A stretch of DNA of 43,401 bases, taken from positions 1-43,401 of IMG/VR virus record IMGVR_UViG_3300025372_000018; one strand, 5' to 3'. The position numbers and the translations under genes are program-made. Source of the stretch: a virus (lineage: Duplodnaviria > Caudoviricetes). Under the pieces are notes generated by a model, which worked only from the letters and a program-made list of their open reading frames with translations, did no database searches and had not been told where the DNA came from. Of this stretch, positions 9,710 to 42,300 are shown piece after piece (position 1 is the stretch's first letter; every line of letters starts with the position of its first letter).

Positions 9710-10123
9710 TTAAACACGAGTAATTCCACGAGGATCTTCAACTACAGCCTCGACAGAATCGTCATTAATTAATCGGAACTCACGACCATGAATCTTTAGG
9801 CGTGTGCCAGTGTTTGGTCTGGCAAGAATAAAGTCACCTTCTTGGCACCAAGGACCAGTAGGAAACTTTTTTTCATCTTTGTAGCAATCAGGTCCCATTT
9901 TGATAACAAAAAAGACGGTGGAAAGCACTTCTTCCATTTGCAGTGTGGCATCCGCTTTGAGGATTCCACCAGCGTGTTCTTTTTCAGCATCAGGAATACC
10001 AACAAGCATACGATAGCCTTGTGGCATGGGTAGTTGTCTTGCTTTTTCTTCACCTGTTTGAGGCAAAGTCGTTACGTTACTCACATCATCGGGGTTTGAG
10101 CCGATTAGTATTTCACTCATCAA
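9710..10123 (-). CDS. groES: GroES-like co-chaperonin
   Basis: PQGYRMLV...GGIL...VIKMGPDCY...EGDFIL...FRLINDDSVEAVV matches the Cpn10 pattern. Confidence 0.8.
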   Translation of the reverse strand: MMSEILIGSNPDDVSNVTTLPQTGEEKARQLPMPQGYRMLVGIPDAEKEHAGGILKADATLQMEEVLSTVFFVIKMGPDCYKDEKKFPTGPWCQEGDFILARPNTGTRLKIHGREFRLINDDSVEAVVEDPRGITRV

Positions 10124-16211: not shown

Positions 16212-16274
16212 ATAAATACTATGCAAGTCAAGTATTTATGGTTTAAGATTTAATCTCATTCACTAGATGAATGA
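16212..16274 (+). promoter_or_regulatory. Putative early promoter with overlapping inverted repeat and 5' hairpin
   Basis: ATGCAA-17 nt-TAAGAT (16221-16249); IR ATAAATACT/AGTATTTAT (16212-16239); hairpin TCATTCA-CTAGA-TGAATGA (16256-16274). Confidence 0.45.
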
Positions 16275-16302
16275 ATAAACAAACCACCTACTAGGAGCAG
16301 AT

Positions 16303-16551
16303 ATGCAAACACTACAAGACACAATCGCCATATGGGATAAGCAGATAGACGAGGAGCAGATGATTGGGTTTGTTCGTCTTCATGCCAATACAAACTACAA
16401 CAAGGGTTGGGATGTCATCGTGGAATGTTGGACAGATGGAGACATCCTTGAGTATCTATCTGAATCCAAGTTCGATATGGCTAAGACACTGAAAGCCATT
16501 CAGGACTGGATTGATCTACGGGATGAGATGGAAGATAACTGCCAGTTCTAA
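16303..16551 (+). CDS. Small acidic early protein
   Basis: 82 aa, HANTNYNKGWDVIVECW; CTAGGAG SD. Confidence 0.8.
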   Translation: MQTLQDTIAIWDKQIDEEQMIGFVRLHANTNYNKGWDVIVECWTDGDILEYLSESKFDMAKTLKAIQDWIDLRDEMEDNCQF

Positions 16552-16554
16552 CCA

Positions 16555-16606
16555 GTCAATCTGATGATGGGCTAATGCCCGAAACCTGAGAGATCAGGTC
16601 ATTGAC
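16555..16606 (+). ncRNA. Hammerhead ribozyme, type I (HH1)
   Basis: Stem I GUCAAU/AUUGAC; CUGAUGA plus one extra U; stem II GGGC-UAAU-GCCC; GAAA; stem III CCUGA-GAGA-UCAGG; GUC cleavage after 16600. Confidence 0.93.
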
Positions 16607-16626
16607 AACACTGCTAGGAGAAACAA

Positions 16627-16815
16627 ATGGAATCAACATTGTTAAAGAAGTTAGCTAAAGGTGAGTTCTTCAAACTCAAAGGGTCTGAGACTGCTCCAGT
16701 ATGGATGATTGACTATCGTGATGGTCATTTCATTCATGCCCACAAGTTTGATGATGTAAACCACACCAAAGTGTTTAAGCAAAACAAAGTAGTTTTCTTC
16801 GGCTTTACTTTCTAA
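16627..16815 (+). CDS. Small early protein
   Basis: 62 aa; SD within the ACTGCTAGGAG box. Confidence 0.8.
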   Translation: MESTLLKKLAKGEFFKLKGSETAPVWMIDYRDGHFIHAHKFDDVNHTKVFKQNKVVFFGFTF

Positions 16816-16824
16816 GGGGGATTT

Positions 16825-16941
16825 ATGGGAACACTAGAGCAACGCTACGCTATTTATCTCGCCTGTGCTGATGATGGCACTGGACATTCAATCACTGATG
16901 GCAAGCCACTGAAAACTTTTGAAGAGTGGTTGAATTCATAG
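16825..16941 (+). CDS. 38-aa peptide
   Basis: MGTLEQRYAIYLACADDGTGHSITDGKPLKTFEEWLNS; AAGGGGG SD; stop abuts HH2. Confidence 0.75.
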   Translation: MGTLEQRYAIYLACADDGTGHSITDGKPLKTFEEWLNS

Positions 16942-16990
16942 TCAAACTGATGAGCCTTTAATAGGCGAAACCCAGTGATGGGTCTTTGAC
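16941..16990 (+). ncRNA. Hammerhead ribozyme, type I (HH2)
   Basis: Stem I GUCAAA/UUUGAC; CUGAUGA; stem II GCCU-UUAAU-AGGC; GAAA; stem III CCCA-GUGA-UGGG; GUC cleavage after 16984. Confidence 0.95.
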
Positions 16991-17009
16991 AAACTGCTAG
17001 GAGTTCAAA

Positions 17010-17372
17010 TTGGAAACACAAACTGTAAAGAAAACAATCGACTTATCCCAGTTTTATGGCACTGAGTCGTATCACCGCACTAACCTGTTTACCCCTAACC
17101 TTGTTCACACTGATGGGGTTCAATACTTTGCTGATCAAGGTGGTTGCTACTGGTTCTTGGATATCGTTGCCAGTGAATACTATCCACTGTTAGCTAAAGA
17201 GCCACTGCTCTCCATCCAGTTAGCCGTTGAGGATGGGAAAGCAGATATCTGCGTGGAAGACGGGGATTGCAACATCATCAAGCAAAAGCATATTGCCCTA
17301 ACCGATTGCCCTGATGGGATGTATCGGTTCTTCCTGACTGACAATGTTCTGATGCTTACTTCGGAGTATTGA
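17010..17372 (+). CDS. DUF6876-like protein
   Basis: LSQFYGTESYH...TDGVQYFA...CYWFLDIVAS...LMLTSEY; TTG start after box SD. Confidence 0.7.
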   Translation: METQTVKKTIDLSQFYGTESYHRTNLFTPNLVHTDGVQYFADQGGCYWFLDIVASEYYPLLAKEPLLSIQLAVEDGKADICVEDGDCNIIKQKHIALTDCPDGMYRFFLTDNVLMLTSEY

Positions 17373-17674
17373 TCATGGCAGACTTGATTGACACGATGAC
17401 AGTCAAGTCTCCCCTCTTCCTTGAGGGAAGTTGGGGAGAGCGAGACATCGGCACACACGAATCCACACTGGAGTTGTATTTCAACAAGGACAACACTGGG
17501 TTTATCGAATGGGACATTCCCGATGTTGCCTTTGAATACATTGGTCTTTGGTTCGATATCGACAAAGATGGAAAACGCTCTTTATCTGAATACGATGGGG
17601 TTATGAGTCTCAATGACCATGCAATAGCACTGCTCCGCAAAAACGGGGTGGAAGTAGGAAAGGACTTCGAATAA
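17369..17674 (+). CDS. Hypothetical early protein
   Basis: FIEWD...IGLWF...YDGVMSL; probable start ATG 17375. Confidence 0.7.
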   Translation: MIMADLIDTMTVKSPLFLEGSWGERDIGTHESTLELYFNKDNTGFIEWDIPDVAFEYIGLWFDIDKDGKRSLSEYDGVMSLNDHAIALLRKNGVEVGKDFE

Positions 17675-17790
17675 TGTTCCCCAAGCACGACTGGTTAGTA
17701 AACACCATATTGGTCGTTGCTTGGGCATACATAGCCTTTTATGTATTCCCACAAGCAATTTATCTTTTTATCAAAACTGGAGGGTTCTGA
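17674..17790 (+). CDS. 38-aa membrane peptide
   Basis: MFPKHDWLVNTILVVAWAYIAFYVFPQAIYLFIKTGGF; TAATG and TGATG coupling at both ends. Confidence 0.65.
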   Translation: MFPKHDWLVNTILVVAWAYIAFYVFPQAIYLFIKTGGF

Positions 17791-17960
17791 TGTTCTGTAT
17801 GCACGAAAACCAACACACTTGGGATGAGTATGACGCTCAAGGGATTTTTCTTACAAGGGTCTGCGAAAAGTGCGTGGATGCCAAGTTAAGCCAATACCGC
17901 CCTGAGATCCTTTCAGGGTATTTTCAATCAGATGTAGATGAGCCAATAGAGGAGCAATAA
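17790..17960 (+). CDS. Small Cys-containing protein
   Basis: MFCMHEN...YDAQGIFLTRVCEKC...; GGAGG SD. Confidence 0.7.
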   Translation: MFCMHENQHTWDEYDAQGIFLTRVCEKCVDAKLSQYRPEILSGYFQSDVDEPIEEQ

Positions 17961-17961
17961 C

Positions 17962-18126
17962 ATGAATTATCAAAACTACTTTTCGTATTTAGATGTTTTA
18001 CGAGATTCAGGTGTAACCAATATGTTTTTGGCATCACCTTACTTGGAAGCAGAATTTGGTTTATCTCGCAGAGAAGCAAGAGATGTATTGCTTACTTGGA
18101 TTAAATCATTTAATAAAGGGGAATAA
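17962..18126 (+). CDS. 54-aa protein (DUF5049-like)
   Basis: YLDVLRDSGVTNMFLASPYLEAEFGLSRREARDVLLTW; GAGGAG SD. Confidence 0.7.
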   Translation: MNYQNYFSYLDVLRDSGVTNMFLASPYLEAEFGLSRREARDVLLTWIKSFNKGE

Positions 18127-18127
18127 C

Positions 18128-18700
18128 ATGGGATGGACTGGGACACAATGCTTTTTCAAAATCAGTCGCAAAGACTTTTTGATCAAAGAATTTACGCAAG
18201 AAAACGATACCCACAAATGGTGGCTAACCAATATCTCGATGCGTGGCAACACCGCATATTGCATTAGTTGGCAAGAGGAGAAAGCCACTGGGATCAAACA
18301 CCATGAGGGCATGGTTATCCTGACAGAGAAACGCAGAGAAGATCCTGACTGGATCTATTACAAGAATATGGGGGAGACTGTATTGCCCTATTACTTTGAT
18401 GCTCCCAAGAGCCTTATTACGACTCTTAACGCATTAGGTATGCCGTTCAATACAAGTGCTAAACAATGGCGAGAGCGATGCTTGGCAAATGCCAGTGTCA
18501 AGAAGCCAAAGTTGAAGTTTGGGGATGTTGTGAAGTTTGCCCATCCGATGTCATTCTCATTTTCTACTGGGAGGGTTGAAGAGGACACCTTTACCTATGT
18601 TGAATACGGGACAAAGAAAAATGTATTCAAGACCAGTCAAGGGCATCTTTGCCGTATATCAAAGTTAGCCAATAAAGAATTTACAGTTCTATCAAACTGA
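18128..18700 (+). CDS. DUF6927-like protein
   Basis: Start MGWTG; YKNMGETVLPYYFDAP...AKQWRERC; TGA stop lies inside the HH3 core. Confidence 0.65.
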   Translation: MGWTGTQCFFKISRKDFLIKEFTQENDTHKWWLTNISMRGNTAYCISWQEEKATGIKHHEGMVILTEKRREDPDWIYYKNMGETVLPYYFDAPKSLITTLNALGMPFNTSAKQWRERCLANASVKKPKLKFGDVVKFAHPMSFSFSTGRVEEDTFTYVEYGTKKNVFKTSQGHLCRISKLANKEFTVLSN

Positions 18701-18784
18701 TGAGCCAAGAGTAATGGCGAAACAAGTAAGTATGAGACCGCAAAGTCGTATGACGAGACCGCAAATTACTTACTTGTCTTTGAT
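18691..18784 (+). ncRNA. Hammerhead ribozyme, type I, extended stem III (HH3)
   Basis: Stem I AUCAAA/UUUGAU; CUGAUGA; stem II GCCA-AGAGUAA-UGGC; GAAA; stem III CAAGUAAGUA/UACUUACUUG with 34-nt insert; GUC cleavage after 18778. Confidence 0.93.
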
Positions 18785-18804
18785 TAACTGCTAGGAGAAT
18801 TAAC

Positions 18805-19272
18805 ATGGGTTTAGATATGTATTTAACCGCTAAGAAATACCTTTGGTCTGATGCCGATAAGGAGTTATCTGCCAAGATCAATGAAGCCATTGGAGTTGAG
18901 CCTGACTTTGAGAAACGATTTAATGGTTCGAGTTTGGTTGCTAAAGAGATATCACTGGATGCGATGTATTGGAGAAAAGCCAATGCCATTCATGGATGGT
19001 TCGTCAATGTTGTGCAAGACGGGGAGGATAACTGCCGAGAATATGAGGTAGATCGAGAACAGTTGGAGACACTGCGAGACTTGTGCAAAGACATCCTTGA
19101 GCATCCTGATGCTGAAAGGGAGACCGACTTAGAGCCGACTGAGGGATTCTTCTTTGGTTCTTACAAAAAAGACGAATGGTATTACGAAGACCTGAAGAAC
19201 ACTGTTGAGGGGTTGGATAAGGTTTTGGCATTACCTGACGAGTATTCATTTAGCTATCAAGCCAGTTGGTAA
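18805..19272 (+). CDS. Conserved phage protein (MGLDMY / YWRKANAIHGWF family)
   Basis: Hallmark motifs MGLDMYL, YWRKANAIHGWF, GFFFGS, YQASW; SD within box. Confidence 0.8.
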   Translation: MGLDMYLTAKKYLWSDADKELSAKINEAIGVEPDFEKRFNGSSLVAKEISLDAMYWRKANAIHGWFVNVVQDGEDNCREYEVDREQLETLRDLCKDILEHPDAERETDLEPTEGFFFGSYKKDEWYYEDLKNTVEGLDKVLALPDEYSFSYQASW

Positions 19273-19282
19273 GGAGAGAGCC

Positions 19283-19573
19283 ATGCAAAACATATGCGAA
19301 GACGGATATCAGGGCAATCACGATCCAGTATTAGATGAGTTTGGATTAGATGCTTACGAGCAGATTCAGATGAATTATGAGTCTCTTGACAATGGATCAG
19401 TGGTTGTCAATTTTGATGTATGGGACACCGATAATGACCAAGTTGTAAAGCAAGGGGGTTATGTCATGGTGCGTAAAGACGAAGATGACAAAGTGTTTGC
19501 CGTTGTCGTTATTGATGCCAATGGCGATAAGGTTGCAGAGGTTCATTTGCCATTTAACTTTTTGGAGTGCTGA
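19283..19573 (+). CDS. Acidic hypothetical protein
   Basis: Start MQNICED after AAGGAG. Confidence 0.7.
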   Translation: MQNICEDGYQGNHDPVLDEFGLDAYEQIQMNYESLDNGSVVVNFDVWDTDNDQVVKQGGYVMVRKDEDDKVFAVVVIDANGDKVAEVHLPFNFLEC

Positions 19574-19574
19574 T

Positions 19575-19853
19575 ATGCCAAAAATGCACATTAAAGCGTA
19601 TGAGGTTCTTATCAAATCAGAATGGTATGAAGAGCCTACCTATGTCTTACTGGGAGTAGATGAAGAGGGTCATCCTGATTATGCCGTTTGGGAGTGTTGG
19701 GCAGATGAAAAGATTTACTTTTATTTGTCTCCCGATGAAATGGCTAATCTCAAAGTTGGGGATGTTCTTAACGATGGCGAGGATTTTACGATCCTTGAGA
19801 TTGATCCTGAGCCGACTATTTACGAAGTTGAATACGAATTGGAGACTGTATGA
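19575..19853 (+). CDS. Acidic hypothetical protein
   Basis: Start MPKMHIK after GGAG; DEKIYFY. Confidence 0.7.
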   Translation: MPKMHIKAYEVLIKSEWYEEPTYVLLGVDEEGHPDYAVWECWADEKIYFYLSPDEMANLKVGDVLNDGEDFTILEIDPEPTIYEVEYELETV

Positions 19854-20101
19854 AAGATATCAAAGATTACGACAAATACTGGAATGACGAAGCTAAAAAA
19901 CTATTGCTTCACAAACGCATTGTCAATGTTCGGTATTTAACGCAACAAGAGACTGAAGACATGGGTTGGCATGAAAGGGTTGTTGCCTTTCAAACGCATG
20001 ATGGATTGTGGTTTTTCCCCAGTTGCGATGATGAGGGAAACAGTGGAGGTGCATTATTTACTTCCGATGAAAAACAAAGTTGTTTACCAGTAATGAGGTA
20101 A
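19850..20101 (+). CDS. Conserved phage protein (DDEGNxGG motif)
   Basis: FPSCDDEGNSGGALFT. Confidence 0.75.
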   Translation: MKDIKDYDKYWNDEAKKLLLHKRIVNVRYLTQQETEDMGWHERVVAFQTHDGLWFFPSCDDEGNSGGALFTSDEKQSCLPVMR

Positions 20102-20289
20102 TGATGCCTAAATACATTATCAGGGCTGAGACCAATGTGATGTATGAGAGGGTTATAGAAGCCACCAGTGAAGCCGATGCTTGGGAAAAGGGCAAAGCCC
20201 TACCTGAGTGCGACTTTCACTTGGTAGGCGAATATGACCATGTTGTCTACGATGTAGAACAAACCGATGACGATGAGGATATCGAATGA
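20101..20289 (+). CDS. DpnD/PcfM-like small protein
   Basis: MPKYIIRAETNVMYERVIEATSEADAWEK. Confidence 0.6.
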   Translation: MMPKYIIRAETNVMYERVIEATSEADAWEKGKALPECDFHLVGEYDHVVYDVEQTDDDEDIE

Positions 20290-20498
20290 AAAATGTTTAC
20301 TTAGTTGAAACCAGTGAGACTTGTTTGGTTCACAAGCAATACTCCGTATGTGCTTACACGATGGAGCAAGCCAAAGATATGGTTTTGCGTGGGGATCTTT
20401 ATGACTCAGGCAGGGAATTAGATCATTGGATTATGGATGATCTTGATGTCAATGAAATAAGAAGTATCAAACATTCAAGAGTAGTGGAGGAAGACTGA
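20286..20498 (+). CDS. DpnD/PcfM-like small protein
   Basis: MKNVYLVETSE...YSVCAYTMEQAKDMV. Confidence 0.55.
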   Translation: MKNVYLVETSETCLVHKQYSVCAYTMEQAKDMVLRGDLYDSGRELDHWIMDDLDVNEIRSIKHSRVVEED

Positions 20499-20716
20499 TG
20501 TTTGAAGTTCAACACTACACCCTGTGCGATGGTTGGATTAACTGTTGGTCGGAGGAGGATGAAAACGGAGTAATGATCCCCTCCATTTATAGGACATATA
20601 CCGAAGCCCTAGATGCCTTGAATGAATTTCTTGAAGATGAGTTGATGGAATTTAACGCTGGCAATATTGATTCGATGTATGAATTAGACGAGTTCAGAAT
20701 AATGGAGATTTTTTAA
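20498..20716 (+). CDS. Small acidic protein
   Basis: FEVQHYTLCDGWINCW; coupled. Confidence 0.7.
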   Translation: MFEVQHYTLCDGWINCWSEEDENGVMIPSIYRTYTEALDALNEFLEDELMEFNAGNIDSMYELDEFRIMEIF

Positions 20717-20901
20717 TGCCTAAGAAAACATTGGAAGAAATTGAAGCAGAGATGAACAACATGGTTTTCCAATTAACGAAGCTATGCAAGATGGAGTATT
20801 ACGACTGGCGATTAGAAGACAGGATGCACTATGGTCGGCTGATGGCTATGAAGCAAAGAAGATTGGCTGAACAACAACATAAGAGGACTGAAAATGCCTA
20901 A
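20716..20901 (+). CDS. Small helical protein
   Basis: 61 aa, coupled. Confidence 0.6.
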   Translation: MPKKTLEEIEAEMNNMVFQLTKLCKMEYYDWRLEDRMHYGRLMAMKQRRLAEQQHKRTENA

Positions 20902-21064
20902 ATACGAAGTTAGCTATACATCATGGGTAACGATTGAAGTAGATGCCCATGATGATGACCAAGCCCTTTCTATGGCTGATGCCATTCTCGACACCTTTAC
21001 TGGTGCTGACTTTAGAGAATGTTGTGATTATCAAGGGATCAGGGAGGTAGAACATGGATTATGA
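20894..21064 (+). CDS. DpnD/PcfM-like small protein (56 aa)
   Basis: Not in track: MPKYEVSYTSWVTIEVDAHDDDQALSMA...; GAGG SD. Confidence 0.6.
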   Translation: MPKYEVSYTSWVTIEVDAHDDDQALSMADAILDTFTGADFRECCDYQGIREVEHGL

Positions 21065-21230
21065 GCAATTAAAAGACTTGGTTGGCGAGGACAATGCCAT
21101 TTCAGTCTATGACTATTTTGCCGACTTTACAGTCGATAACTTGATCCAGTTGGTGCTAGATGGCTACACACCTAGCCAGTTGTTGCACCTTGCCAAGCAA
21201 TTAAACCCGTTGGAGGATGACGATGTCTAA
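21054..21230 (+). CDS. Small acidic protein (58 aa)
   Basis: Not in track: MDYEQLKDLVGEDNAISVYDYF...; GGAGG SD. Confidence 0.65.
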   Translation: MDYEQLKDLVGEDNAISVYDYFADFTVDNLIQLVLDGYTPSQLLHLAKQLNPLEDDDV

Positions 21231-21387
21231 TTGGAAACCAGTTGAATTGGTAGAAGACTATTGGATCATTATTGATGAGGATAGCCAAGAAGAGTATCAG
21301 GATGGCACTGGTCATAACATGATGTTTATAAATAAATGGGGTGCTGAAAGAAGGATTCAACAAATAAAGGAAGAAGAAAATGCCTAA
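21223..21387 (+). CDS. Small acidic protein (54 aa)
   Basis: Not in track: MSNWKPVELVEDYWIIIDED...; GGAGG SD. Confidence 0.6.
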   Translation: MSNWKPVELVEDYWIIIDEDSQEEYQDGTGHNMMFINKWGAERRIQQIKEEENA

Positions 21388-21613
21388 CATGAACCGCCTA
21401 CACCGATTCAAGGAATTACTTTGGAATAAGTATGACGAAGAGATCAAAGAAGAGACTGATTGGTTTTACAAGGGATGGGGTTGGGAGATTAACTTTGTCG
21501 AGGATGAAAATGAATCCAGTGCCGTTATCTATCGTGTCAAGGATGGTTTGACTGACTGGAGCGATTACATCGTTTTAGAACGCTATATCAAAGAATGGAG
21601 GAAAGTTGTATGA
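21380..21613 (+). CDS. Small hypothetical protein
   Basis: 77 aa, coupled. Confidence 0.65.
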   Translation: MPNMNRLHRFKELLWNKYDEEIKEETDWFYKGWGWEINFVEDENESSAVIYRVKDGLTDWSDYIVLERYIKEWRKVV

Positions 21614-21804
21614 CTGAACTTTATTTAGTAAAAAGCAGTGGCGAAGATGAATGGGGTAATGAGTATTGGGAAAACCTACAAATCTTTGAGAATCCTACTT
21701 TAGCTAGGAAGTTTGTAGCCAAGCTAAAAAGGTTGTTGAGAAAAGATAAGTCTACCGATAAGGTGGAGATTGAGAACTTCACGCTGAGAACGGAGGAAAT
21801 ATGA
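21610..21804 (+). CDS. Small hypothetical protein
   Basis: Start MTELYLV after GGAGG. Confidence 0.65.
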   Translation: MTELYLVKSSGEDEWGNEYWENLQIFENPTLARKFVAKLKRLLRKDKSTDKVEIENFTLRTEEI

Positions 21805-21977
21805 ATAAATGGGAAGTAGTGCCATTCTTTGACTATGACGATTACTACCAAGTTGGTAGAACAGTCATGGTAGATGGAAAGTATAAATTTGAATCAAAGG
21901 GCATCAAGTATCGGGAAAAATCACAAGCTGAGACTTATGCAAACAAACTTAATAACAAGGAGAATCAAAATGCCTAA
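21801..21977 (+). CDS. Small hypothetical protein (58 aa)
   Basis: Not in track: MNKWEVVPFFDYDDYYQVGR...AETYANKLN; GGAGG SD. Confidence 0.6.
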   Translation: MNKWEVVPFFDYDDYYQVGRTVMVDGKYKFESKGIKYREKSQAETYANKLNNKENQNA

Positions 21978-22554
21978 TTGGTGCGATAACACATTGTATT
22001 TAACTCACAAAGATCCAAAGATGGTGGACAAAGCCATTGAGGGATGGAAGAACAATAAATTTTTTGCAACACTGCGACCTGAACCTGATTACACAAAAGT
22101 CAAAGTAAAGCCTACATTTCCTATGAATGTGGCTACTGGGCAAGCAAAGCCTGAGTTTGTCGAAGCTGACCAAGCATGGTGGGATTGGCGATTACAGAAC
22201 TGGGGAACAAAGTGGGAGATTGTCTCCGATGAAAGCTATATGGACATTCAAGAGAATGAGCATGGCAAATCTATCAGGGCATCATTTTCTACTGCGTGGA
22301 GTCCTCCCACTGACTTGTATGAGTATCTGCATGAAGAGGGTTATGAGATCAAAGCCCACTACTATGAGGGTGGTTGTGCCTTTTGTGGCACATGGGAAGA
22401 TGGTATGGAAGACTTCTATAACATTGAGCCACCTGAAGGTATGAAGACTAGCGTGTGGGTGCGTGAGAACATTCCTGAAGAACTCGATGCAGAGATGGGT
22501 ATTGCCGATAGCTATGAATCATTTGAAGACGAAGATGAAGAGGAGCAAGCCTAA
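21970..22554 (+). CDS. YubB/Api92-like ferredoxin-like fold protein
   Basis: MPNWCDN, WWDWRLQNWGTKW, FSTAWSPP, YYEGGCAFCG; AAGGAG SD. Confidence 0.8.
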   Translation: MPNWCDNTLYLTHKDPKMVDKAIEGWKNNKFFATLRPEPDYTKVKVKPTFPMNVATGQAKPEFVEADQAWWDWRLQNWGTKWEIVSDESYMDIQENEHGKSIRASFSTAWSPPTDLYEYLHEEGYEIKAHYYEGGCAFCGTWEDGMEDFYNIEPPEGMKTSVWVRENIPEELDAEMGIADSYESFEDEDEEEQA

Positions 22555-22724
22555 TGACTAAATACAATGTTTATGCAACGGAAAAAGTTTGGTATCAAAT
22601 TAAAGTAATTGCCAATACAGAAGAAGAAGCAAGACAAATGGTTATGGATGGTAATTACTCATCTTATGAAGCTATTGATGGCGAAAATTTTAATATTTTA
22701 GAGATTGAAAAGGAAGAAGCATGA
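22554..22724 (+). CDS. DpnD/PcfM-like small protein (56 aa)
   Basis: Not in track: MTKYNVYATEKVWYQIKVIANTEEEARQMV. Confidence 0.6.
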   Translation: MTKYNVYATEKVWYQIKVIANTEEEARQMVMDGNYSSYEAIDGENFNILEIEKEEA

Positions 22725-22888
22725 ACCAAGCAGACAAAGATGCTCAGAAGTGGATGGAGATGAATCAGAGAGTGCAATACCGCAACCTTATTAAAGCCAA
22801 AGAACTAGGCGATCTTTACTATATCGACCAACATGGCACAGTCATTGTCCATGATCCGAAAGAAGAGAATGAACCTAAAGAACTGTAA
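22721..22888 (+). CDS. Small hypothetical protein (55 aa)
   Basis: Not in track: MNQADKDAQKWMEMNQRVQYRNLIKAKELG... Confidence 0.55.
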   Translation: MNQADKDAQKWMEMNQRVQYRNLIKAKELGDLYYIDQHGTVIVHDPKEENEPKEL

Positions 22889-23150
22889 GGGGAAAGTGCC
22901 AGTCTTTGTGGGGGGCGATGCCCCTTACAAACTGGTGGATTTTCCGACTAGGGAGCAATTTGACGAAATGTTCAAGCGTAACAATGTTGTTTTACGGGAG
23001 AAATACTGGAATGTTTTGAAGAAGCGTTCACAAGGGCATACACTTATAGAAGTAGGAGGAATGTATACCCTGACTCGTGAAAGGATCAGGCAGATAGAAG
23101 CTAAGTTTTTAAAGAAAGTAGCAGTTTCTTTAGAGACTGGGATGCTTTGA
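22869..23150 (+). CDS. Sigma-70 region 4-like HTH protein
   Basis: HTLIEVGGMYTLTRERIRQIEAK matches the region 4.2 signature. Confidence 0.75.
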   Translation: MNLKNCKGKVPVFVGGDAPYKLVDFPTREQFDEMFKRNNVVLREKYWNVLKKRSQGHTLIEVGGMYTLTRERIRQIEAKFLKKVAVSLETGML

Positions 23151-25415: not shown

Positions 25416-26228
25416 TTACTTCTTCTTGGATAAAGATTTGACCTGACGGATCAATTCAGCGTTCCTTTGTTGATACATATCTCGGCTATCACGCAGAGCT
25501 TTGTTGTCAATTTCAAGGACACGAATCTGTTCACGCAGATTTACCACTGTGTCGTGGATGTCCTCAACCTCAATCTCGGTAGCGTTCCATCGTTTGGTGG
25601 CGATGATGTCTCTTGCTTCTGTGAGTTCTTTGTCTAAGATGATGACAGTGTCGGTGAGTTCTTGAATCTTTTCTTCAACGGAGGGGGCTGGTTCTTCTTT
25701 TGGTTCTTCTTTGACCTCAACCTTTGGTTCTTTCTTACTTAACTTCATGGTAGCTTCTTTGCCATGCTTGTTGATGTAAGTAACCTCTTCTTTGGGTGTC
25801 TCTTCCAGTGACTTGCGAATACGACCTATGGTCATGCCTGACACACCGATGTGCTTGCCAATCTGAGCGTTAGACCATTTACTCCATTCGGAGTCTTTAA
25901 TCATGTCTAGAACGATTTGGCGGTTATCTTCTGATGTATGGGGTATGCCATGCTTGTTAGAGCCGTAGGCAAACAGTTTGGCATCTCTGACTGTACCTTC
26001 TTTGACATCGCAGTCAATCGATACATTGCCTATTTGCTTGGTAGCGAAGTAGCGGTGGAATCCTGCTGATAGCCAGTAATCTGAGCCGTCAAAGAACACT
26101 GTTATGGGTGGAAACTCAACCTTGTCACGCATGAGATCTGCGTATTCTTGTACCTTATCTTGGTTAAGTTGTTTGCGTACTTGTGTGCCACCATCAATAC
26201 GGATGACAGCAAGATTTAATCTTTTCAA
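25416..26228 (-). CDS. ParB/Srx-like N-terminal domain, HTH and coiled-coil protein
   Basis: IRIDGGTQVR...FPPITVF...AGFHRY; WSNAQIGKHIGVS; TTG start after box SD. Confidence 0.75.
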   Translation of the reverse strand: MKRLNLAVIRIDGGTQVRKQLNQDKVQEYADLMRDKVEFPPITVFFDGSDYWLSAGFHRYFATKQIGNVSIDCDVKEGTVRDAKLFAYGSNKHGIPHTSEDNRQIVLDMIKDSEWSKWSNAQIGKHIGVSGMTIGRIRKSLEETPKEEVTYINKHGKEATMKLSKKEPKVEVKEEPKEEPAPSVEEKIQELTDTVIILDKELTEARDIIATKRWNATEIEVEDIHDTVVNLREQIRVLEIDNKALRDSRDMYQQRNAELIRQVKSLSKKK

Positions 26229-26235
26229 TTTATTT

Positions 26236-26247
26236 CTCCTAGCAGTT
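26236..26247 (-). promoter_or_regulatory. AACTGCTAGGAG box overlapping SD of ParB-like gene
   Basis: Exact copy of the box found after HH2 and HH3. Confidence 0.75.
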
Positions 26248-27079: not shown

Positions 27080-27083
27080 GCAC

Positions 27084-27118
27084 AAAAGAAAAGACCCCCA
27101 GGATTAGCTGGAGGTCTT
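27084..27118 (-). terminator. Rho-independent terminator of the sRNA
   Basis: AAGACCTCCAG-CTAATC-CTGGGGGTCTT then TTCTTTT; internal U-G pair is only possible on the minus strand. Confidence 0.85.
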
Positions 27119-27225
27119 GGTGTGATCGAGGGCGATCAACGGAGGGCTTGCCATTATTAGAGCACTCATCAACTGCTAGGCCAATAGGGACTAGAAATGG
27201 CAATGTCTATGGGGTAGACAGCACT
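27084..27225 (-). ncRNA. Candidate trans-acting antisense sRNA (~140 nt, four hairpins)
   Basis: Promoter and terminator flank UGUCUA/UAGACA, UUGCCAUU/AAUGGCAA and UGAUCG/CGAUCA stems; carries CCUAGCAGUU, the antisense of the RBS box. Confidence 0.7.
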
Positions 27226-32883: not shown

Positions 32884-32890
32884 TTGATTG

Positions 32891-32946
32891 TCCTAGCAGT
32901 TAATCAGACTTTATTTTCACTGATATAATTAACCATGTCAATAGGT
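32891..32946 (-). promoter_or_regulatory. Promoter plus TGATTAACTGCTAGGA box
   Basis: TTGACA (32936-32941)-17 nt-GAAAAT (32913-32918); predicted start near 32906; 16-nt identity to the HH3 3' flank. Confidence 0.65.
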
Positions 32947-32970: not shown

Positions 32971-33312
32971 ATGAATACAGTAATTTTGCCCTGGCCTCCT
33001 AAAGAATTAAGCCCAAATTCCACATTACACTGGGCTAAGAAGGCTAAATTTAAGAAGGCTTATCGTCATACTTGCTGGGCGTTGACACTAGAAGCCAAGC
33101 TCACAGCTGACGGATTAGGGAAAATCCCTATTCTGATTACCTTTTATCCCCCAGATAAACGCCATCGGGATGCAGATAACATGGTTGCCAGCATCAAAGC
33201 TGGATTGGATGGCGTAGCAGATGCCCTAAAGATAAACGATAGGCAGTTTATGCCTACGTTTACCTTTTCAGATGAGGTTAAGGGAATGGTTAAAGTCCAG
33301 CTGACAGCCTGA
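32971..33312 (+). CDS. rusA: RusA-like Holliday junction resolvase
   Basis: LPWPP..LSPN, FYPPDKRHRDADNM...KAGLDGVADAL.IND. Confidence 0.8.
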   Translation: MNTVILPWPPKELSPNSTLHWAKKAKFKKAYRHTCWALTLEAKLTADGLGKIPILITFYPPDKRHRDADNMVASIKAGLDGVADALKINDRQFMPTFTFSDEVKGMVKVQLTA

Positions 33313-36300
33313 ACTTAATCGTCTGTTCCAGAATTTCTTCTTTTTTGTTCTTATAGAAGTTAATCTGTTTGCGTTTTTCGTCTGGAGACATCTGGGATGC
33401 TGGTAGATCCTCAATCCTACGAATCTGGGCATTGATATCAATTAGAGCTTTACCAGCTTGACCAGTAAATCCAGAGGCTTGTATTTCCCCTTTATGGTCG
33501 TTAAACCATTGTTGAGCTTCTTCTGGGTGTCCTTTTTTCATTAAATCTTTGAATGTGCCCATAGCAGTGTCAGAACGGGTCTTCAGGTCGTAGAAGAGGT
33601 CTTCCCTGCCTCGTGGTACTTCAGGAGCTACAAACGAGCCATAGAGGGGATTATTGCGTTCCTCTGGGCTTGCTTTGTGACCAGAGAATAGGTTAGATCC
33701 CCACATCGCAGCAGCAGCCACAGAACCGCCTAATCCACGCATGACGTGATCAGCTTGGATTGGGCTTAACATCCGATGCTCTTGGGAGCCTAGACCGCTG
33801 GCATAGCTAATCCACTTACCTAATTCAGAGGTGCTGCCGTTGTATTGACGGAAGGCAGCCAAGTCTTTCATGGATTGTGGAGTGACGTTACCGCCAGTGT
33901 AGAAGTCATGGTTTAGGGCTATCTCAGCAAATGGCTTGATGGCAGTAGGCACTGGACCCGATCCAAGTGGGCCAAGTAATGCATCCACTGCACCTTCCTT
34001 GAGAGCTTTACGCAATCTAGCATTGTCGATGGCATCTTTAGTACCCTCTTTAGTGATCTTGTTATAGAGCATCTCAGGGATAGACTTAAAGAAATAGCTG
34101 GCAGAAGTATGCATTGGGATGAGCAAGGTATGGTCATAGCCAATTGTCTTCATCATAGAACGAGGGATAACAAAGTTACGCATCTTTGTCTGGTCATCCA
34201 TCTTTTTGTATTCGTCATCATCACCAATCGCAAAGGCATATAACAGGCAAGTAGAAGCCAATAGACCGCTGGCAATAGCCAATCTGGTCATTGCTTGCTG
34301 ACGATCTAATCCTCTTAGACCACCGCTAATACTGGTAATTTTTTGACCTGTGAGCCTTTCTACACCACCAGCAATAGGCTCTGCCAATGCTTGGGTCAGC
34401 ACATCAATCTGCTGGGCATAGGCGTTCATAAACGCAATAGTCCTGTTGAGGAATTGAGCTGTTCTGCCCATGCCACGTTTGTCAAAGTCAATGACGTTAG
34501 TCGCTGCCAAAATTGCTTTACGCTGGTCTCCACCGCTTGGGAAACCGCCAGTCTCTTTCATTACACGCACATAGACGGCTCTACGCTGGGCAAAGTCTGA
34601 GGCATCGGCAATCTGGTCAAGGATGCTGGTCACTCTGGCAAAGGCTGATTTATTCAATAAACCAATTTCTTGCTTGTATTGATGCTCTGCTGTTCTAGCA
34701 CCAGAGTGATAACCGCCAATACCGTAAGACTTGAGCAACTCAACCACTTCATCTTTTTGAGTCAAGCCTTTAGCAAATGAACCAAACACACCGCCAAACA
34801 ATGCTAATGGGTTCTTCACGCCAGTCACGATGGCAGCTGTTGGAGCATCCATGAAAAGCTGTTTAAGCTGGAATACACCAGAGAAAGTAATCGATCTACG
34901 CAAACCGTTAGCAAAGTAAGCCATGATCTCGTTCATTGGAATCTGGATATTCTCAATACCAATCACGGACTGGGCAATCAATGGGTCAGCAATTTGGATG
35001 TTGACCTTTCTGCCACTAATCAAAATCTTAACGATGCCACGAGCTGCATCTTCTTTAGGGAAGACTTTGAGCTTGCCGTTCTCATTACGAGTGCCATACT
35101 CCTGGGCAATACGGTTAGCTGCATAGTTCTTAATGGCGTTACGAGTAGTCACCATGACGTTGTGAAGCATATTGTCTACGATGTCATCGATGTCTAAATC
35201 AACCTTACCTTCTTTGAAACGATGCTCTCTGGCTACGTTCTTGACACCTTTAGAGCTATAGATTGGGGTATGAACGTCTGTTTGATCATCCATAATCCGC
35301 TGCCAAGGCACATAATCTTCGATGTTACGCAAGGTATCAGCACGTTGTTTGCTGATCATGCGAGCTTGTTCCATCATGTCAATCATGTTCTTGTTAACAG
35401 CGTTCCAGTTATCCATCATTTTTCTAAGTTCTGGATACTGTTTGTCTAGCTTGCTAAAGTCATCGATAGCTTCATCGGACATATTGACTTTTTGCAAGGC
35501 AATACCGATGTTTTTAAAGTCTTGTTCGGCATCAGCAATCTTGTCCAAAAGCAATAGCTGACGGTCTGGTGAAGTACTTGGATCCATCTGCTCTGTTCTT
35601 AGCATCTCCAATTCGCCTTCACGCTTGAGGTATTCATCCACAATAGAACGTGAACGCTTGGCTTCAAAGTAGGCTTGGATGACGTTGGCAGCACGTTGAA
35701 CGCCAATTTCTTTCTCTAACTGGTGCTTCAAGGTCAGAATATTAGCCATCGAGAACTTGTCTTGAACGGCATGGAACATCTGATTGGTGTTATCAAAGAC
35801 TAACTTACCCAGCATGATGACCTGAGTACCAATACGAGTAGCCTTCAGAGCTTGGTTCATAGCCACAGAAGCCACAGCACGACCTTCGCTGTCCTCTAAC
35901 ATACGACCATAACGGGTTGCATCGGCAGCTGTCAAACCAGCTGTAAAGTCTGTTGTCTTGATACGAGTAGCCAACACTGCACGATCTAAGTTGCCAACCA
36001 TGTTGTTAACAGCAAGGCGTGGTGACTCGACCATCTTCGCACCAATATTCTTGGCTTCTTGAGCACCGCCCAAGAACTTATCCATCACACCGTTAGAAGT
36101 ATGGATAGGAGCATCATTGCGATTGTGCTTGGCTAGTAACTCATCAGTCTTCTCAACGCTGTAGAGGAACTTAGTCTTATATGGTCCTGAACTAATCAGG
36201 TCTACCAACATGGTCTTATGAGTTCTTGGTGTCTCGCCTTTGATTAAATCATTGAAGGCTTTGTAAACTGAATGGGTATTGTTAAAACCAAACAGCTTCT

Positions 36301-39300
36301 TCATTGCCTCAAATACTTGACGGATGGCGTTAACATAACGACCCCAAGGAGTTCCCATACGAGTGCCAAATAGCTTTTCAGCGTTGACAGCCCAGAACTC
36401 TGATGGATTGATGTATTGGTACATATCCTGTGAAGGCAACAACTCCATCGCCTTTTCAAAGTTCTTCTCGCTTGGATCGTTGACGTAATCGATTACCGCC
36501 ATGAAATACTTTTGAGACACTTCATCAGTGTTCTTCTTGATGGCTTTCTCAAGGGCTGCTCTCCAAGATTCAACAATTGCTTGCTGGGTCTGTGGATCCA
36601 TCATCTGCTCAAGTGTATGCATCAACTCATGTCGAATAGTGCCAGGATTAACAGCTCCTGATTCCTTGTATAGCCTGACGATACGCTCTAGATTATTAAA
36701 TACGCCAGCAGCTGTGTAGGCTGCGTTCTGTGGGGCTTGCTTAACGGATAAGCGTAGACCAGTCAGGATAGCTGGGGATTGTCTGTAGATGTATTGGATA
36801 ACGTCTAAGACATCCTTGCTGATATTGCCTTTGTTGTATTCGTTAAGGGCACGAGCCATAAACGCTTCAGGCGTAATCTTCTTCTCAGCAGTCATCTTCT
36901 TGTCGGCTGCCAACTCTTTAGCAAGCTGATCAAGGTAAGTTAACTCACGCTGAGTATTGATTGTGGTCTCGCCTTTGATGACTTCACGCTTAATCTTGGT
37001 AATGCCACGCCTTACACGAGCCAACTCATCTGTTTTAGCTTTGTGAATCTGGGCAATTTGCTCTCTTAGATTTTTAGGAATCACGCTTGGATTTAGCTTT
37101 GGAATATGAGCGTAATTGGTTAAAGTAAATCCATCTTCATGGGCTTTACGGTCATATTCAATAGCTTTAGCAGGACTTAAAATACCGTTCTCTGATTCAG
37201 CACCGTTGTAATAATCAATAGCAACTGGCAAGTATTTAAAGCCTAGCTCTTTTGCTGCCATGATTCGATGGTTTCCTTCATTTACATAAGGAGTGCCATC
37301 TTGGTAAACATTGATATATGGGGTGTAATGGGTTTTACCATCTTTCTCAAATGGCAAATGGTTTTTCTCGCCCATGTAATCCATTAAGGATTTCAAATCT
37401 GCAACTCTTACATTGCGTTGCTCATCATTTATACCTTGCATTTTTGCAAGAACATCAACTGGAACAAGCATTTTGCGAACTGGTGAGTTTGTTACACCCT
37501 CTTTTGTTCTGAAATAAGCTGTTGCAGAACCAAATCTATATGGAACGCCATATGATTTTCTGCCATCTTCCCTAGATAATTGACGTTTGTGTTCTAGCCA
37601 ATTTCCACCTGGGTTATCTGTAATCATATAAACAGGAGGAACTTTTGGCTGATACATCACGCTTGGAGTAACAGTCGCTTTGGGTGGAGCAAACATCTCT
37701 CTGGCTTTGTCTCTAGGACTAGAGGCAATCAGAGTGTCACCACGCTCATTCAGGATAAAGTCAATCGCTTTGGCAGCCTGTTGCTCATTACCTCTGGCAT
37801 ACATAGTGTTGCCAGACTTATAGAAGTCACTAGTAATATCAGTCAAACCTCGGTCTAGGAAGTATGTACCGCCTTCTTTCTTAGAGCTTGGGACATTGAA
37901 TTGATACTGGTTGCCATAGCTAGACTTGGTAATCCGCAATACATTATCGGCAGAAGTAATTACACCGTTTACTTCATTCATAAACCGCATAGCATCGGCA
38001 GCTGACCGCAGACGGATAGGAGCTTCACGAGCAGCCTTTTCAAAGTCATAAGTGCGTGGCATGAGAATACCCTGACCAGTAGTGCCGTCAGCTTTGGTAT
38101 AGCTCATAATCTGACCCTGATTCTTTACCGCATCAGAAGCAAATCCAGCCAAAATATTGCCTGTAACCATCCAGCGTTTCTCACGCCTGACGTTAGAACC
38201 TTTGTCAAACAAGTCAGTTAACGGAATGTTCTCTGCTTGCTGGGTATCTGGGTTGTACCAGTTAATGTAATTCTCTTGGTTTAATTGATAAGTGCTGCCA
38301 ATCTGGGAGAAGTTAATCGTAATGGCTTTTGCATCACCGTTAGCCAAAGCAATATGCATTTTCCAGTCTGAGCCAGCAACAGGGTTAGCAGTCTTCTTTT
38401 TATTTTCTAAATCAGTCACAACACCATAGACAAAGATGCCTTGGTTATTCTTAATAGAAATTGGCTGACCTACTGCATAGTTTTCCAAAATAGACTTGAT
38501 GTGCTGATACTGAAGATTTAATTGACCCTTGGCAGCATCAATACGGACTTCATCTGCACCTTTTTCTTTCAGGTTCTCAATTTGTTTTCTACCGTATTCG
38601 GCTGCACGTTCTCTTACACCATCCATGAGCTTGTCAACTTTTTGGCGTTGTGTTCCACCTTCCAAGTTCTCACTCACCATTTCCTGAACTTCTTGTTTGG
38701 TGTATGGCTTAACAGTACGTTTAACGTCTACCTTTTCCATGTAAGCTGGTTGAGCAAACAAGGATGGATCACCTTTATCTGGGGTAATAGGCACGGCTGA
38801 TAGAGTCTCAGCATCAAGGTCAACAGCTTTAGCTTCGAGCTTATTGGTTCCCATGCTGTTCTCACGCTCAACTAAATCGTTGTAACGATCAATCAGATCC
38901 TTATAAATTTCTTCCTGTTCTTTAATTGGCAGGATAGGAATGTAGCCAGTCAATCTACGGATATCATCTTCTTTAGCATCGGTTGGGTCTTCTATAAGAT
39001 CTACAACCTTTTTACCGCCAATAGCTTCGTGAACCTCTGGGTTATCACGCAAGTATTCCTGTGCAATCTGACCACCGTAGTCATTCATAAAGTCCACAGC
39101 ACCTTCGGCTGTAACGGCAGACTTACGGGAAGCTGTCGTATTGGCGTTCAAGGAAGCCATCTTCTTGAGCAATACCGCAGCTGGCCTCATCTCCGCTGGG
39201 ATGTCAGCCATCATTTGTGAGTAAGCTGGAGCTACAACTTGACCAGTACGATGCACACGACCAAGCATCTGCATATGGGTATCAATGTTCTTTTCAGGCT

Positions 39301-42300
39301 GAACAATGATCATGTGGCGTTTGCGTTGATCTTTAAAGCTAGAGGATGCGTGTAATGACAAGCCAGTAGAACCAGCTTGGTTCAGGATAATGACATCGGC
39401 TGTGCCATTGTTAAATGCACGAACAGCACCAACACGCTGTTTAATATTGGCAGAACGAGAAGTAAGGATTGGTGTGCCACTCTCATAGTTAAGGGTCACT
39501 GTACGACCAGTAATCTCTTCTGTCTTATACCCAGCTTTACGCAACTCATTGTGCATATAGTCAATTGGGGAGATTGGAGCTGAACCAAAACCAGCATTTT
39601 CAATAAATGTCTTAATTTGGTTATAGGCTGCCAAACGCTCTGGACCAAGATCTTGATCGGTCATACGGTATTGTTGTACGCCATTCGGTCCTTTGATCTT
39701 GAGCATCCGTTGCTTTTCCAAGTAACGCAGATACAGATCTTTAAAGGTCAGATTGACTGGATCACCTACGTTGATGCCCATTTCATCAGCATAACTTTGT
39801 AAGAATGAACCCATCGTATTGGAAACGGTCATTACGACCTTCTCGCCATTCTTTAGGCTTTCCACAGCGTGTTTGATAGAGTCCTGGGCTTTTAATGACA
39901 AAAGCATCTGGTCAATCAAGTTATGCATGATGGCACCAAAGTTTGCACTTTGGATCTGGGTCTTCTCACCTTCGATACTTGCTCTACCGCCAGACTTGTC
40001 AAACTCCTTTTGCATCTCTTTGACAACGGCTTCTTTAGAACGGGAGAACGCCAAGATGTCACGCATCGAGGTAGCCATGTTCTCAGCTGTCTGCTTATCG
40101 ACCTTTGTCTCTTGGGTCTGATAACTTACACCAGCAAAGGTTCTTTCCCTGCGAATATATTGACCGACTTTGGTCAGCATATTGGCAACAATCTGTTGCA
40201 TTGGAATACCGCCTAGCTTGATGGCATCGGCTAATTCATTGATGTTATCAACCGCTAACTTCATGTCTGTGCTGGAATACAAGTCCATCACATCAGGGCG
40301 TTTAGCGTAGGTAGCTGACGAGAAGAACGTACCAAAGGCGTTATCTACCAAGTCACGGACAAAGGCTGCACGACCAGTGGCTAGGCTCTTGCCTTCCTTT
40401 TGGGATTCTCTTTGTTCTTTGCTACGGGCTTGGGTTTCACCAGCACCACCAGCGTTATGACTTTCGTCAAAAATCATGTAGTTGCCAAGACCAAACGATT
40501 TAATAAAGCGTTGGCGTTCTGTTTCGTTTTTCTTAACAGCTTGCAACTGGCTATAGGTAGTAAAGATTACCTTGTAATCGCCAAGGCTTTCTTTCTCTTG
40601 CATACCCTTCATCATCTCGTCTAATGCTTTGCCAGTCTTAGGAGCTTTGAGGGTAAGGTTGTTTTCTGTTACTTCGCCATTAACAGTGCGGAGCAAGGTA
40701 TAAGGAATAGATTCACTAGAGTTAGTGATAAAGATGCGTGGTTTGGCTGTATCTAGTCCTAACTCTTTGGTCATACCGATATCATCCAAGTCACGGATCA
40801 TGTCGGAGTAAAGGTTTGGCTTCTCTGTAACAAAGATAGGTACTTTGTCATTCTCGATGGCGTACTTGATCATCGCAGCAACAACACGACCTTTACCAAT
40901 ACCAGTCTGGTCTCCAATAATGAAGCCTTTGCCAGCTTCAGCATTACGGATAGCCAAAACCAAGGCATCAATTTGTTCAGCGGAGAACTTCTCACGCAGG
41001 GTCTCTGGATCCATGTGCAGGGCTTCTGCTACATATTCATCCACATCACCGACTTCACGCTCTACGGCTGAAATAGAGTTATCAATGGATTCTGCCATTG
41101 CTTTAGGAACAAGCGTTCCTACAGAAGCAGCTTGTGAATGAGGCTCGTAACCTACTTGATGACCAGTTTCTGTTTCCTGACCTCTACGGTCTTTTAATCC
41201 AGACTCGACTCGTGTACCTGAGACAACGCTAGGTCCACCCACTGGGCTAGGCTCGTTTCCTGCAATGCCTTTTCTGCCACTGGGTTGCTGCTCTCCACCT
41301 TCGCTGGGAACGGGTCCTCGATTGATGCCACGTTCAGGTTCGTTAGCAAGTCTAGGTTGTCCTGCACTAACACCTGCCCCAGCTGGTTCGGGTTGTCCAC
41401 GTTTGCTAGGCTCATTCTCAGACACGCCTCGTCTGCCGCCTTCTGTGGGTCGCTCTCCTTCAGCACCAGCTTCACGACCTTGTCCGCTAGGGCGTTCACC
41501 CACTGGTTCTGGTTTAGGCTCCCCTGCGGTACGCTCACTGACGTTAGTTCTGGTGGGGCTGACATTTTCTCTGGAAACCACGCTAGGTTCATTTAACTTC
41601 TCCTTGAGTTCTTCGTATGAGGTAATTTGCTGTGGGAGTTCCGCAGCTGGTAAGGCTCTTTGTGACTGACCTTTTCCATCAATAACAATGACATCTACAG
41701 GGTAAGAAGCTCCCTGTTTACTGTACATATCCCCAGCTACGGAGAAATGGTCAACTACGTTGTAATCTTTGTAGAGGTTGTAATAAAACTCTCGTTTTGC
41801 TTTTTGACGATATCCTTCACGCCTTGCATCTTCGCCTTCAGCACGAACACCGCCTAGGATCAATACGGCTCTGCCATTAGCTGGCATATCATTTAAAGCT
41901 TTGTATGAAATAGCATGATCTATTTCTCTAGTGGTTTTTCCATAAACATGAAATTCTTCGCCAATAGAACCAAAAGGAGGGTTGGCAATGACTACATCGA
42001 CAGGATTTATGGATTTAAGAACTGCATTTTCATTAGATACTTTTGCACCTGGAAGCACCTTTTTGAGCATTTCATAACGGCTAGTATTGAGTTCGTTCAC
42101 CGTAACATTGTTAGGGTTAGAAGCTATCAACAACATTCCGTTACCGCCAGTAGGCTCGTAAACCGTTGTTTTATCAGTAATTCCTGCTAGTTGCGATGCA
42201 ACATAAGCCAATGGAGCTGGGGTGGAATAAGCCTGTTCTCTAACACTGGTAGAACTTCTGACAGCCAAATTAGGCTGACGGTTGTATAGATTTACCAAGC

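Follow-up and report, generated by a model that had tools for sequence, protein, structure and literature searches.

Hammerhead ribozymes as probable counterparts of RNase III-like processing hairpins in a putative early phage message

The window analyzed here, the whole 43,401-nucleotide (nt) stretch of the Caudoviricetes record IMGVR_UViG_3300025372_000018 (a linear virus record with a CheckV completeness of 68%), carries three type I hammerhead ribozymes within a block of small genes, and comparison with related loci indicates that these ribozymes probably cut the message into protected blocks, taking on the job of the RNase III-like hairpins of the relatives. Hairpins resembling the RNase III sites of phage T7 occupy the same slots in those relatives, and for this reason both elements likely divide one long message into pieces that are protected separately. 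A broader proposal is offered tentatively, as a serious possibility short of a favored one: swappable 5'-end cassettes (promoter plus hairpin, RNase III site plus refolding hairpin, or hammerhead with its 5'-hydroxyl (5'-OH) end) may deliver one leader in the early message and be exchanged between near-identical phages, with the hammerheads as the equivalents of RNase III sites, capping mRNAs through chemistry rather than structure, and with a stem III insert that gives some of them a site for binding a protein or ligand. Should this be true, it represents a natural swap experiment. Near-identical phages that differ just by a hammerhead versus a T7-like hairpin at one junction are matched natural pairs. 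The hammerheads and the processing idea were already known, and the new element is the comparison with relatives, which bears on function.

A hammerhead descriptor run on all 54 CUGANGA heptamers of both strands (18 plus, 36 minus) returned three type I, zero type II, and zero type III hammerheads, at the same coordinates as in the preliminary description of this DNA. Across 200 dinucleotide shuffles the loose pattern matched 0.035 times on average (maximum 1) and the strict pattern never (0).

16555 to 16606, plus strand: hammerhead 1, with stem I at 16555-60/16601-06, core at 16561-67, an extra U at 16568, stem II at 16569-80, and GAAA at 16581-84
16941 to 16990, plus strand: hammerhead 2, with a canonical core and a predicted cut after 16984
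18691 to 18784, plus strand: hammerhead 3, with a canonical core, a long stem III, and a predicted cut after 18778

All copies have three helices, with stem I open and stems II and III closed, which is the type I topology; stems I/II/III comprise 6/4/6, 6/4/5, and 6/4/11 base pairs (bp) in copies 1, 2, and 3, respectively. The core C3-U4-G5-A6-N7-G8-A9 with G12-A13-A14, the A15.1-U16.1 pair, and the cleavage triplet GUC are present in three of three copies, and the stem sequences differ between copies with the pairing intact, bearing out the covariation described previously. C17 falls at 16600, 16984, and 18778, and the predicted 3' products begin at 16601, 16985, and 18779. The cut had been placed 25-26 nt before the next start codon, and the computed distances of 26, 25, and 26 nt (copies 1, 2, and 3) agree. 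The claim that each copy begins at or overlaps the upstream stop codon is true of copy 2 (1-nt overlap) and copy 3 (the stop is the core UGA, 18698-18700), but not of copy 1, which begins 3 nt past the stop. Copy 1 also carries its extra U (16568) between A9 and G10.1.

The isolated motifs fold as hammerheads in three of three cases (z-scores of -3.9, -2.1, and -2.3), and with flanks added the z-scores reach only -0.7 to -1.6 and alternative folds compete. The Rfam hammerhead models proposed as a check gave zero matches in the window at gathering scores; at E ≤ 10 copy 2 alone was listed, by Hammerhead_HH9, at 21.4 bits where the cut-off is 52 (E = 0.055). Failure at the gathering threshold speaks to the coverage of the library and not to catalysis, and with the compact phage hammerhead falling below the Rfam cut-offs, such cassettes are probably under-counted. 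Judged by their sequence, the three motifs are very likely active hammerheads.

Each predicted cut is followed by a short leader that shares the sequence ACUGCUAGGAG:

16607 to 16626, plus strand: leader 1, with A1.7 at 16607, to which the base at the end of loop II is complementary, and ACUGCUAGGAG at 16610-20 with a Shine-Dalgarno-like AGGAG
16991 to 17009, plus strand: leader 2, with A1.7 and ACUGCUAGGAG at 16993-17003; a UUG start follows at 17010
18785 to 18804, plus strand: leader 3, with U1.7 opposite the A that ends loop II and ACUGCUAGGAG at 18787-97

The same leader was found downstream of hammerheads, irregular hairpins, and promoters alike. Within the window it also occurs on the minus strand without a hammerhead, at 26236-26246 ahead of a ParB-like open reading frame (ORF; 25416-26228), with a one-mismatch copy, likewise without a hammerhead, at 32890-32900 (minus) ahead of an ORF ending at 32883; by their sequence these copies may mark further mRNA 5' ends. 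The T7 leaders of genes 0.3 and 1 (loci L109/L189) have UAACUG directly before the Shine-Dalgarno sequence, resembling the window leader. An explanation of the leader as an extended match to the end of 16S rRNA was rejected, as none of the five matches lies in an rRNA-like context.

Related loci, numbered here with the prefix L, were gathered by two protein searches (50 and 79 loci) and two pattern scans (59 and 63 loci; these require the leader and are hence biased), all heavily overlapping, and the loci are redundant and related. One alignment, in which a row was mis-addressed, did not enter the counts. Their 108 unique hammerhead cores hold CUGANGA in 105 cases, GUC in 101, and the extra U after A9 in 21; the variant CCGAUGA (U4C) was seen in 3 of the 108 (L068:4900-4960, L127). 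In 98 of 108 cores the final base of loop II and position 1.7 are complementary (65 U-A, 31 A-U, and 2 G-C; in 10 they are not), a count that assumes a 4-bp stem II and scores sequence complementarity rather than pair geometry. When bases were shuffled within groups of identical stem I, a mean of 88 were complementary and none of 20000 shuffles reached 98, with relatedness just partly controlled, as the unrelated position 2.7 likewise tracks the loop II base. A U1.7-loop II contact tied to fast cleavage sits at this position (PMC11875169); here the reversed orientation occurs as well. Two extensions of the structure were rejected: a general loop II pseudoknot, since neighboring positions do not co-vary, and a lengthening of stem I to 7 bp, seen in just 6 of 108 cores. 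Many pair types occur per stem position among 71 unique cores, though the descriptor itself requires pairing, and on this comparison the hammerhead fold is kept through compensatory change. The distance from cut to start is 24-28 nt in 112 of 121 related hammerheads. The hammerhead plus leader pattern had zero matches in the GTDB genomes.

The evidence that carries the functional reading comes from the exchange of elements within the same slots, which was followed upstream of two genes:

17010 to 17372, plus strand: gene B, the first ORF after hammerhead 2, a DUF6876 protein with a UUG start at 17010
18805 to 19272, plus strand: gene C, phrog_7971, of no known function

Only unique upstream contexts were classed, and those without an N-terminus or 150 nt of upstream sequence were dropped. 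The 59 contexts of gene B comprise 19 with a hammerhead, 17 with a hairpin, 2 with a promoter, and 21 with none; the 54 of gene C comprise 11 with a hammerhead, 17 with a hairpin, and 26 with none (three of these gene C contexts were classed by a wider pattern). The leader ACUGCUAGGAG is present in 27/30 hammerhead, 34/34 hairpin, and 2/2 promoter contexts and in 0/47 plain contexts. An identical gene B protein follows a hammerhead in L114, L075, and L054 and a hairpin in L115, and the gene trees need 17 (gene B) and 11 (gene C, a quick version of the tree) changes of label. Both elements were held by 5 of 76 junction types, and homology is clear on both flanks for L009 versus copy 3, for L071/L095 versus L010 and others, and for L024 versus copy 2, where the upstream ORF of 38 amino acids (aa) is conserved. 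An element occurs in 36 of the 50 protein-selected loci, of which 26 hold both kinds, 7 hammerheads only, and 3 hairpins only, with all 110 elements on the coding strand. Overall, 192 unique elements lie upstream of 44 gene families. In L007/L114 the body of hammerhead 1 is joined to the leader of copy 2 with the two intervening genes missing, and L061 has a duplication bounded by the leader.

The second element of the relatives is an irregular hairpin of 12-22 predicted pairs (18-22 in 22 of 25), with no Rfam family; at gathering scores, Rfam gave one unrelated match over 17 related loci. In one subclass of 24 sequences, 96.7% of cells are paired and 10 of 19 pairs are changed on both sides, a covariation that exceeds shuffled and slid controls, with the structure drawn from the same 24 sequences. 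These hairpins appear to resemble the hairpins upstream of T7 early genes. A covariance model built from the 24 rows, with no other input, gave five matches at E ≤ 5 on the whole T7 genome, and the top three of the five lie just upstream of genes 4.7, 18.5, and 0.5. The matched hairpins are taken to be the T7 sites of those names, as presumed from T7 naming. R4.7 and R18.5 are described as strong RNase sites in one study (10.1101/106799), and another gives R0.5 as a site of RNase III (PMC3643576). A substrate of RNase III extends over about two turns of helix, and an internal loop can restrict the cut to one strand (PMC1540722); the predicted hairpin of the relatives has both features. If cut before GAUU, as presumed, these hairpins are predicted to refold into a 5'-terminal stem-loop in 25 of 25 cases, a set picked without requiring the stem-loop (the 60 of 60 in the pattern-selected set are built in and were not counted), and the 3' products of hammerheads have a predicted 5' stem-loop in 0 of 121. 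No T7-like hairpin was found in the window by this model (best E of 3.5).

From these observations, the putative early transcript would be cut co-transcriptionally after 16600, 16984, and 18778, which would yield four blocks of 1, 2, 6, and about 15 genes. Hammerhead cleavage yields 2',3'-cyclic phosphate and 5'-OH ends. A type I layout would leave the core with stems II-III on the upstream piece as 3' hairpins, and the downstream piece would start with a bare 25-26-nt leader, being held by the weak 6-bp stem I alone (predicted at -2.4 to -4.1 kcal/mol) and released with the aid of a ribosome halted at the adjacent stop. The 5'-OH end of each downstream block would then slow its decay by the host. 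Three kinds of element (promoter plus hairpin, T7-like hairpin, and hammerhead) feed one leader, and each would make a protected 5' end, with a stem-loop guarding phosphorylated ends and the 5'-OH chemistry guarding the others. A 5'-OH is a poor substrate for 5'-end-dependent cleavage by RNase E, and, according to an unpublished remark reported there, E. coli seemingly leaves a hammerhead-made end unphosphorylated (PMC4191395). Protection by the 5'-OH also fits the modeled contrast between hairpin and hammerhead products in their 5' stem-loops.

The preliminary description had likened the processing to that of T7 early RNA, with separate mRNAs as the outcome and independence from the host. The likeness is strengthened by the T7-like hairpins in the same slots of relatives, but the predicted products are the blocks of 1, 2, 6, and about 15 genes given above and not single-gene mRNAs. 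Host independence can be retained for the window's three sites only, since both elements occur together in 26 of 36 related clusters and the RNase III gene was found in 0 of 5 phage genomes searched. Likewise, the term "early operon" agrees with the divergent small-ORF layout, but the timing is drawn from that layout, and the transcript is early in a putative sense.

It should be noted that a number of points weigh against this reading. As the loci are redundant and related, their counts are not independent events, and the 21/59 gene B and 26/54 gene C orthologues without an element imply that processing is dispensable at these genes. The extra U of copy 1 may slow cleavage. The three T7 matches are weak singly (E of 0.22-1.5), and the model did not recover the remaining T7 RNase III sites, which we take to number seven. 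With an ad hoc score, the gene 0.5 site alone was recovered, at 9 bits against 10-25 in the training set, and a first hairpin model, with the leader included and an RNAalifold structure, re-found the leader and no T7 site. The hairpin cut before GAU(U) is an assumption borrowed from T7, and the subclass with a near-perfect 15-bp helix might be cut by RNase III on both strands. The T7 gene 0.3 leader is likewise without a 5' stem-loop, and the hammerhead leaders are short, such that the absence of a hairpin may be trivial. Finally, the direct entry of RNase E is a major route of decay and ignores the 5' end (PMC4191395), and a natural CChMVd hammerhead with an extra A at the position of the copy 1 insertion has a moderately lower rate (PMC1636495).

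Of the alternatives, the one that survives best is that cleavage mainly activates or uncouples translation of the next gene by freeing the ribosome binding site, rather than stabilizing RNA, and it is nonetheless unlikely. The leader has a fixed length of 25-26 nt, RNase III processing helps to translate some T7 mRNAs (PMC4858673), and the predicted accessibility of the Shine-Dalgarno sequence rises after the cut in copy 1 (0.69 to 0.85) and copy 2 (0.29 to 0.61). However, accessibility drops in copy 3 (0.73 to 0.63) and the median shift over 121 hammerheads is small (0.51 to 0.57, with changes beyond 0.1 upward in 34 and downward in 14), and release of the ribosome binding site leaves the 5' stem-loops of the hairpin class unexplained.

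The composite L007/L114 joint and the L061 duplication, both at the leader, raise the question of whether the cassettes are mainly crossover sites that shuffle small genes, with cutting secondary, for which the PeSL elements of T4-type phages are a precedent (PMC2839356) and which would suit the variety of gene families that the elements precede. Gene shuffling via the shared leader is probably a real side effect. As the main function it is very unlikely: the stem sequences diverge, yet the pairing, core, and 1.7 contact are kept, which favors selection on RNA catalysis and leaves less DNA homology, and the swaps in which both flanking genes are kept require no exchange of genes.

That the hairpin of the relatives is an undescribed ribozyme or a two-state switch, and not an RNase III site, is highly improbable as well. 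It does lack an Rfam family, it can form two mutually exclusive helices that share GAUU, and slots of this sort are known to be occupied by ribozymes of unrelated classes (PMC6765202). Against this, the hairpin has no conserved single-stranded core, it matches T7 positions, and its length of two helical turns, broken by a small internal loop, is that of RNase III substrates (PMC1540722). Least likely is the idea that cleavage limits expression through glmS-like decay from the 5'-OH end, or that pieces between hammerheads are ligated into circles; glmS cleavage does reduce expression (PMC6765202) and tandem hammerheads leave compatible ends, but in relatives this slot would give ends capped by a stem-loop, the pairing of stem I is weak, RtcB was found in 0 of 5 phage genomes searched, and Perreault et al. 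saw neither spliced nor circular products (PMC3088659).

Apart from the proposed processing of the message into protected blocks, copy 3 has an insert in stem III that recurs among viral contigs:

18722 to 18777, plus strand: stem III insert of hammerhead 3, an 11-bp helix with two GAGACCGCAAA copies and a small inner hairpin

The two GAGACCGCAAA copies form a two-fold symmetric internal loop, the conserved form of which is GAG(A/U)CCGCAAA in duplicate; it recurs in L257, L259, L263, L277, L291, L299, L302, and L308, for the most part within a hammerhead stem III. The insert pattern had 44 unique matches in viral contigs, of which 8 lie in a hammerhead stem III with changed flanking helices, one is a stand-alone hairpin, and the rest resemble chance or coding repeats. 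The insert has no Rfam match. At the site of copy 3, locus L002 carries a short stem III, and different long stem III inserts occur in L011, L021, and L026.

The hammerheads are confined to the sole plus-strand block of the window, about 24 small ORFs (16303-23150) that run divergently from the small terminase gene, and the phage hallmarks (terminase, portal, capsid, primase, helicase, Erf, and exonuclease genes) are all on the minus strand. The remaining features of the block are as follows:

within 16216 to 16297, plus strand: putative sigma-70-type promoter, inferred and weak alone, with a -35-like box at 16222-16227 and a -10-like box at about 16245-16250
16256 to 16274, plus strand: 7-bp hairpin near the likely transcription start, from fold prediction
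within 16216 to 16297, plus strand: variant leader CUACUAGGAG of the promoter block, from alignment with relatives
16303 to 16551, plus strand: first ORF, 82 aa, assigned to no PHROG or Pfam family; hammerhead 1 begins 3 nt past its stop
16627 to 16941, plus strand: two ORFs between hammerheads 1 and 2, of 62 aa (16627-16815) and 38 aa (16825-16941)
17010 to 18700, plus strand: six ORFs between hammerheads 2 and 3
18128 to 18700, plus strand: last ORF before hammerhead 3, DUF6927, whose stop is the UGA within the core of that hammerhead
18805 to 23150, plus strand: gene C and about 14 more small ORFs, closing with a sigma-70 region 4 protein

A consensus promoter scan of the window does not list the putative promoter at 16216..16297; the segment aligns to the TTGACA-type promoter, hairpin, and leader blocks of nine unique relatives, of which the window version is weaker. 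In L009 (1720-1740), L010, L020, and L097 the -35 box of the first promoter lies within the near-palindrome TTGAC-A-GTCAA, from its sequence a possible operator or back-to-back -35. The descriptor and the hairpin model found no additional hammerhead and no T7-like hairpin in 18805..23150. The sigma-70 region 4 ORF (22833-23150) closes the block and overlaps the convergent primase gene, and a strong hairpin is predicted at about 22895-22940, near the block's end. Elsewhere on the minus strand, a terminator-like hairpin with a U-run (27082-27121) lies in the large gap preceding the replication block, a GroES-like co-chaperonin (9710-10123) adjoins the portal gene, and 33290-43243 encodes a 3317-aa helicase-type protein with methyltransferase-like, Strawberry-notch helicase, and LPD38 domains, which we take to be DarB-like.

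The nearest named phages are remote (54-57% by terminase and 62-72% by capsid), with no match to the region by blastn or to gene B by tblastn among named phages. A host call from capsid relatives was dropped, as their bins span many unrelated taxa and they are read as co-binned phage contigs. No RNA data set was listed among the sequencing runs holding this DNA. The Rfam Betaproteobacteria-1 RNA in a related phage (L012:8888-9004, minus strand, 100 bits), not found in the window, is a faint host hint.

The role of prokaryotic and phage hammerheads is described as open in reviews (PMC6155905, PMC6765202). A literature search that covered few subscription journals found nothing on hammerhead/RNase III-site exchange in phages, and the main text of a 2026 ribozyme preprint, in the part available, makes no mention of phages. 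The closest known system is that of Perreault et al., who in 2011 described clustered prophage hammerheads flanking genes or short blocks and proposed the same processing; cutting was shown in vitro for three triple arrays and in E. coli for one, with no circles seen (PMC3088659). The window has the same arrangement, in which several hammerheads of one phage genome border single genes or short blocks, likewise three in about 2 kb amid small genes of unknown function, and the Dataset S1 of that study may contain similar sequences. Unlike those clusters, as far as they are described in the available part of the paper, every hammerhead in the window is of type I, stem I has a constant 6 bp, the copies have a leader in common, and a general pseudoknot is absent, and the RNase III-like hairpin exchange seen in the window's relatives is not mentioned there. 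With the Rfam clan CL00010 (Hammerhead_HH9, Hammerhead_3) the core and three-stem fold are shared, but scores of 21-25 bits fall below the cut-offs of 48-52, as the models miss the compact phage form.

The PeSL of T4-type phages are likewise repeated regulatory cassettes amid small variable genes with signs of copy exchange, but they are promoter and terminator units, whereas those of the window and its relatives are units of a cutting site and a leader (PMC2839356); no promoter or terminator matched on the coding strand at the three hammerhead sites, which sets them apart from PeSL. In T7, RNase III cuts the 7000-nt early RNA at five sites, and mono- and dicistronic mRNAs result (PMC4858673). 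The T7 sites (R0.3-R1.3; R4.7, R18.5) and those of the window are both intergenic, and the cut, a predicted one in the window, falls just past a stop codon with a ribosome binding site following closely (PMC4858673, PMC3643576, 10.1101/106799), and the T7 site transcripts are made by the host polymerase, as is taken to apply to the window block. The hairpins of the relatives appear similar to the T7 sites in shape and partly in sequence, whereas the window's three sites would be RNA-catalyzed with 5'-OH ends and belong to an unrelated phage group. Synthetic cassettes use both ribozymes and RNase III sites as such parts (PMC6993053).

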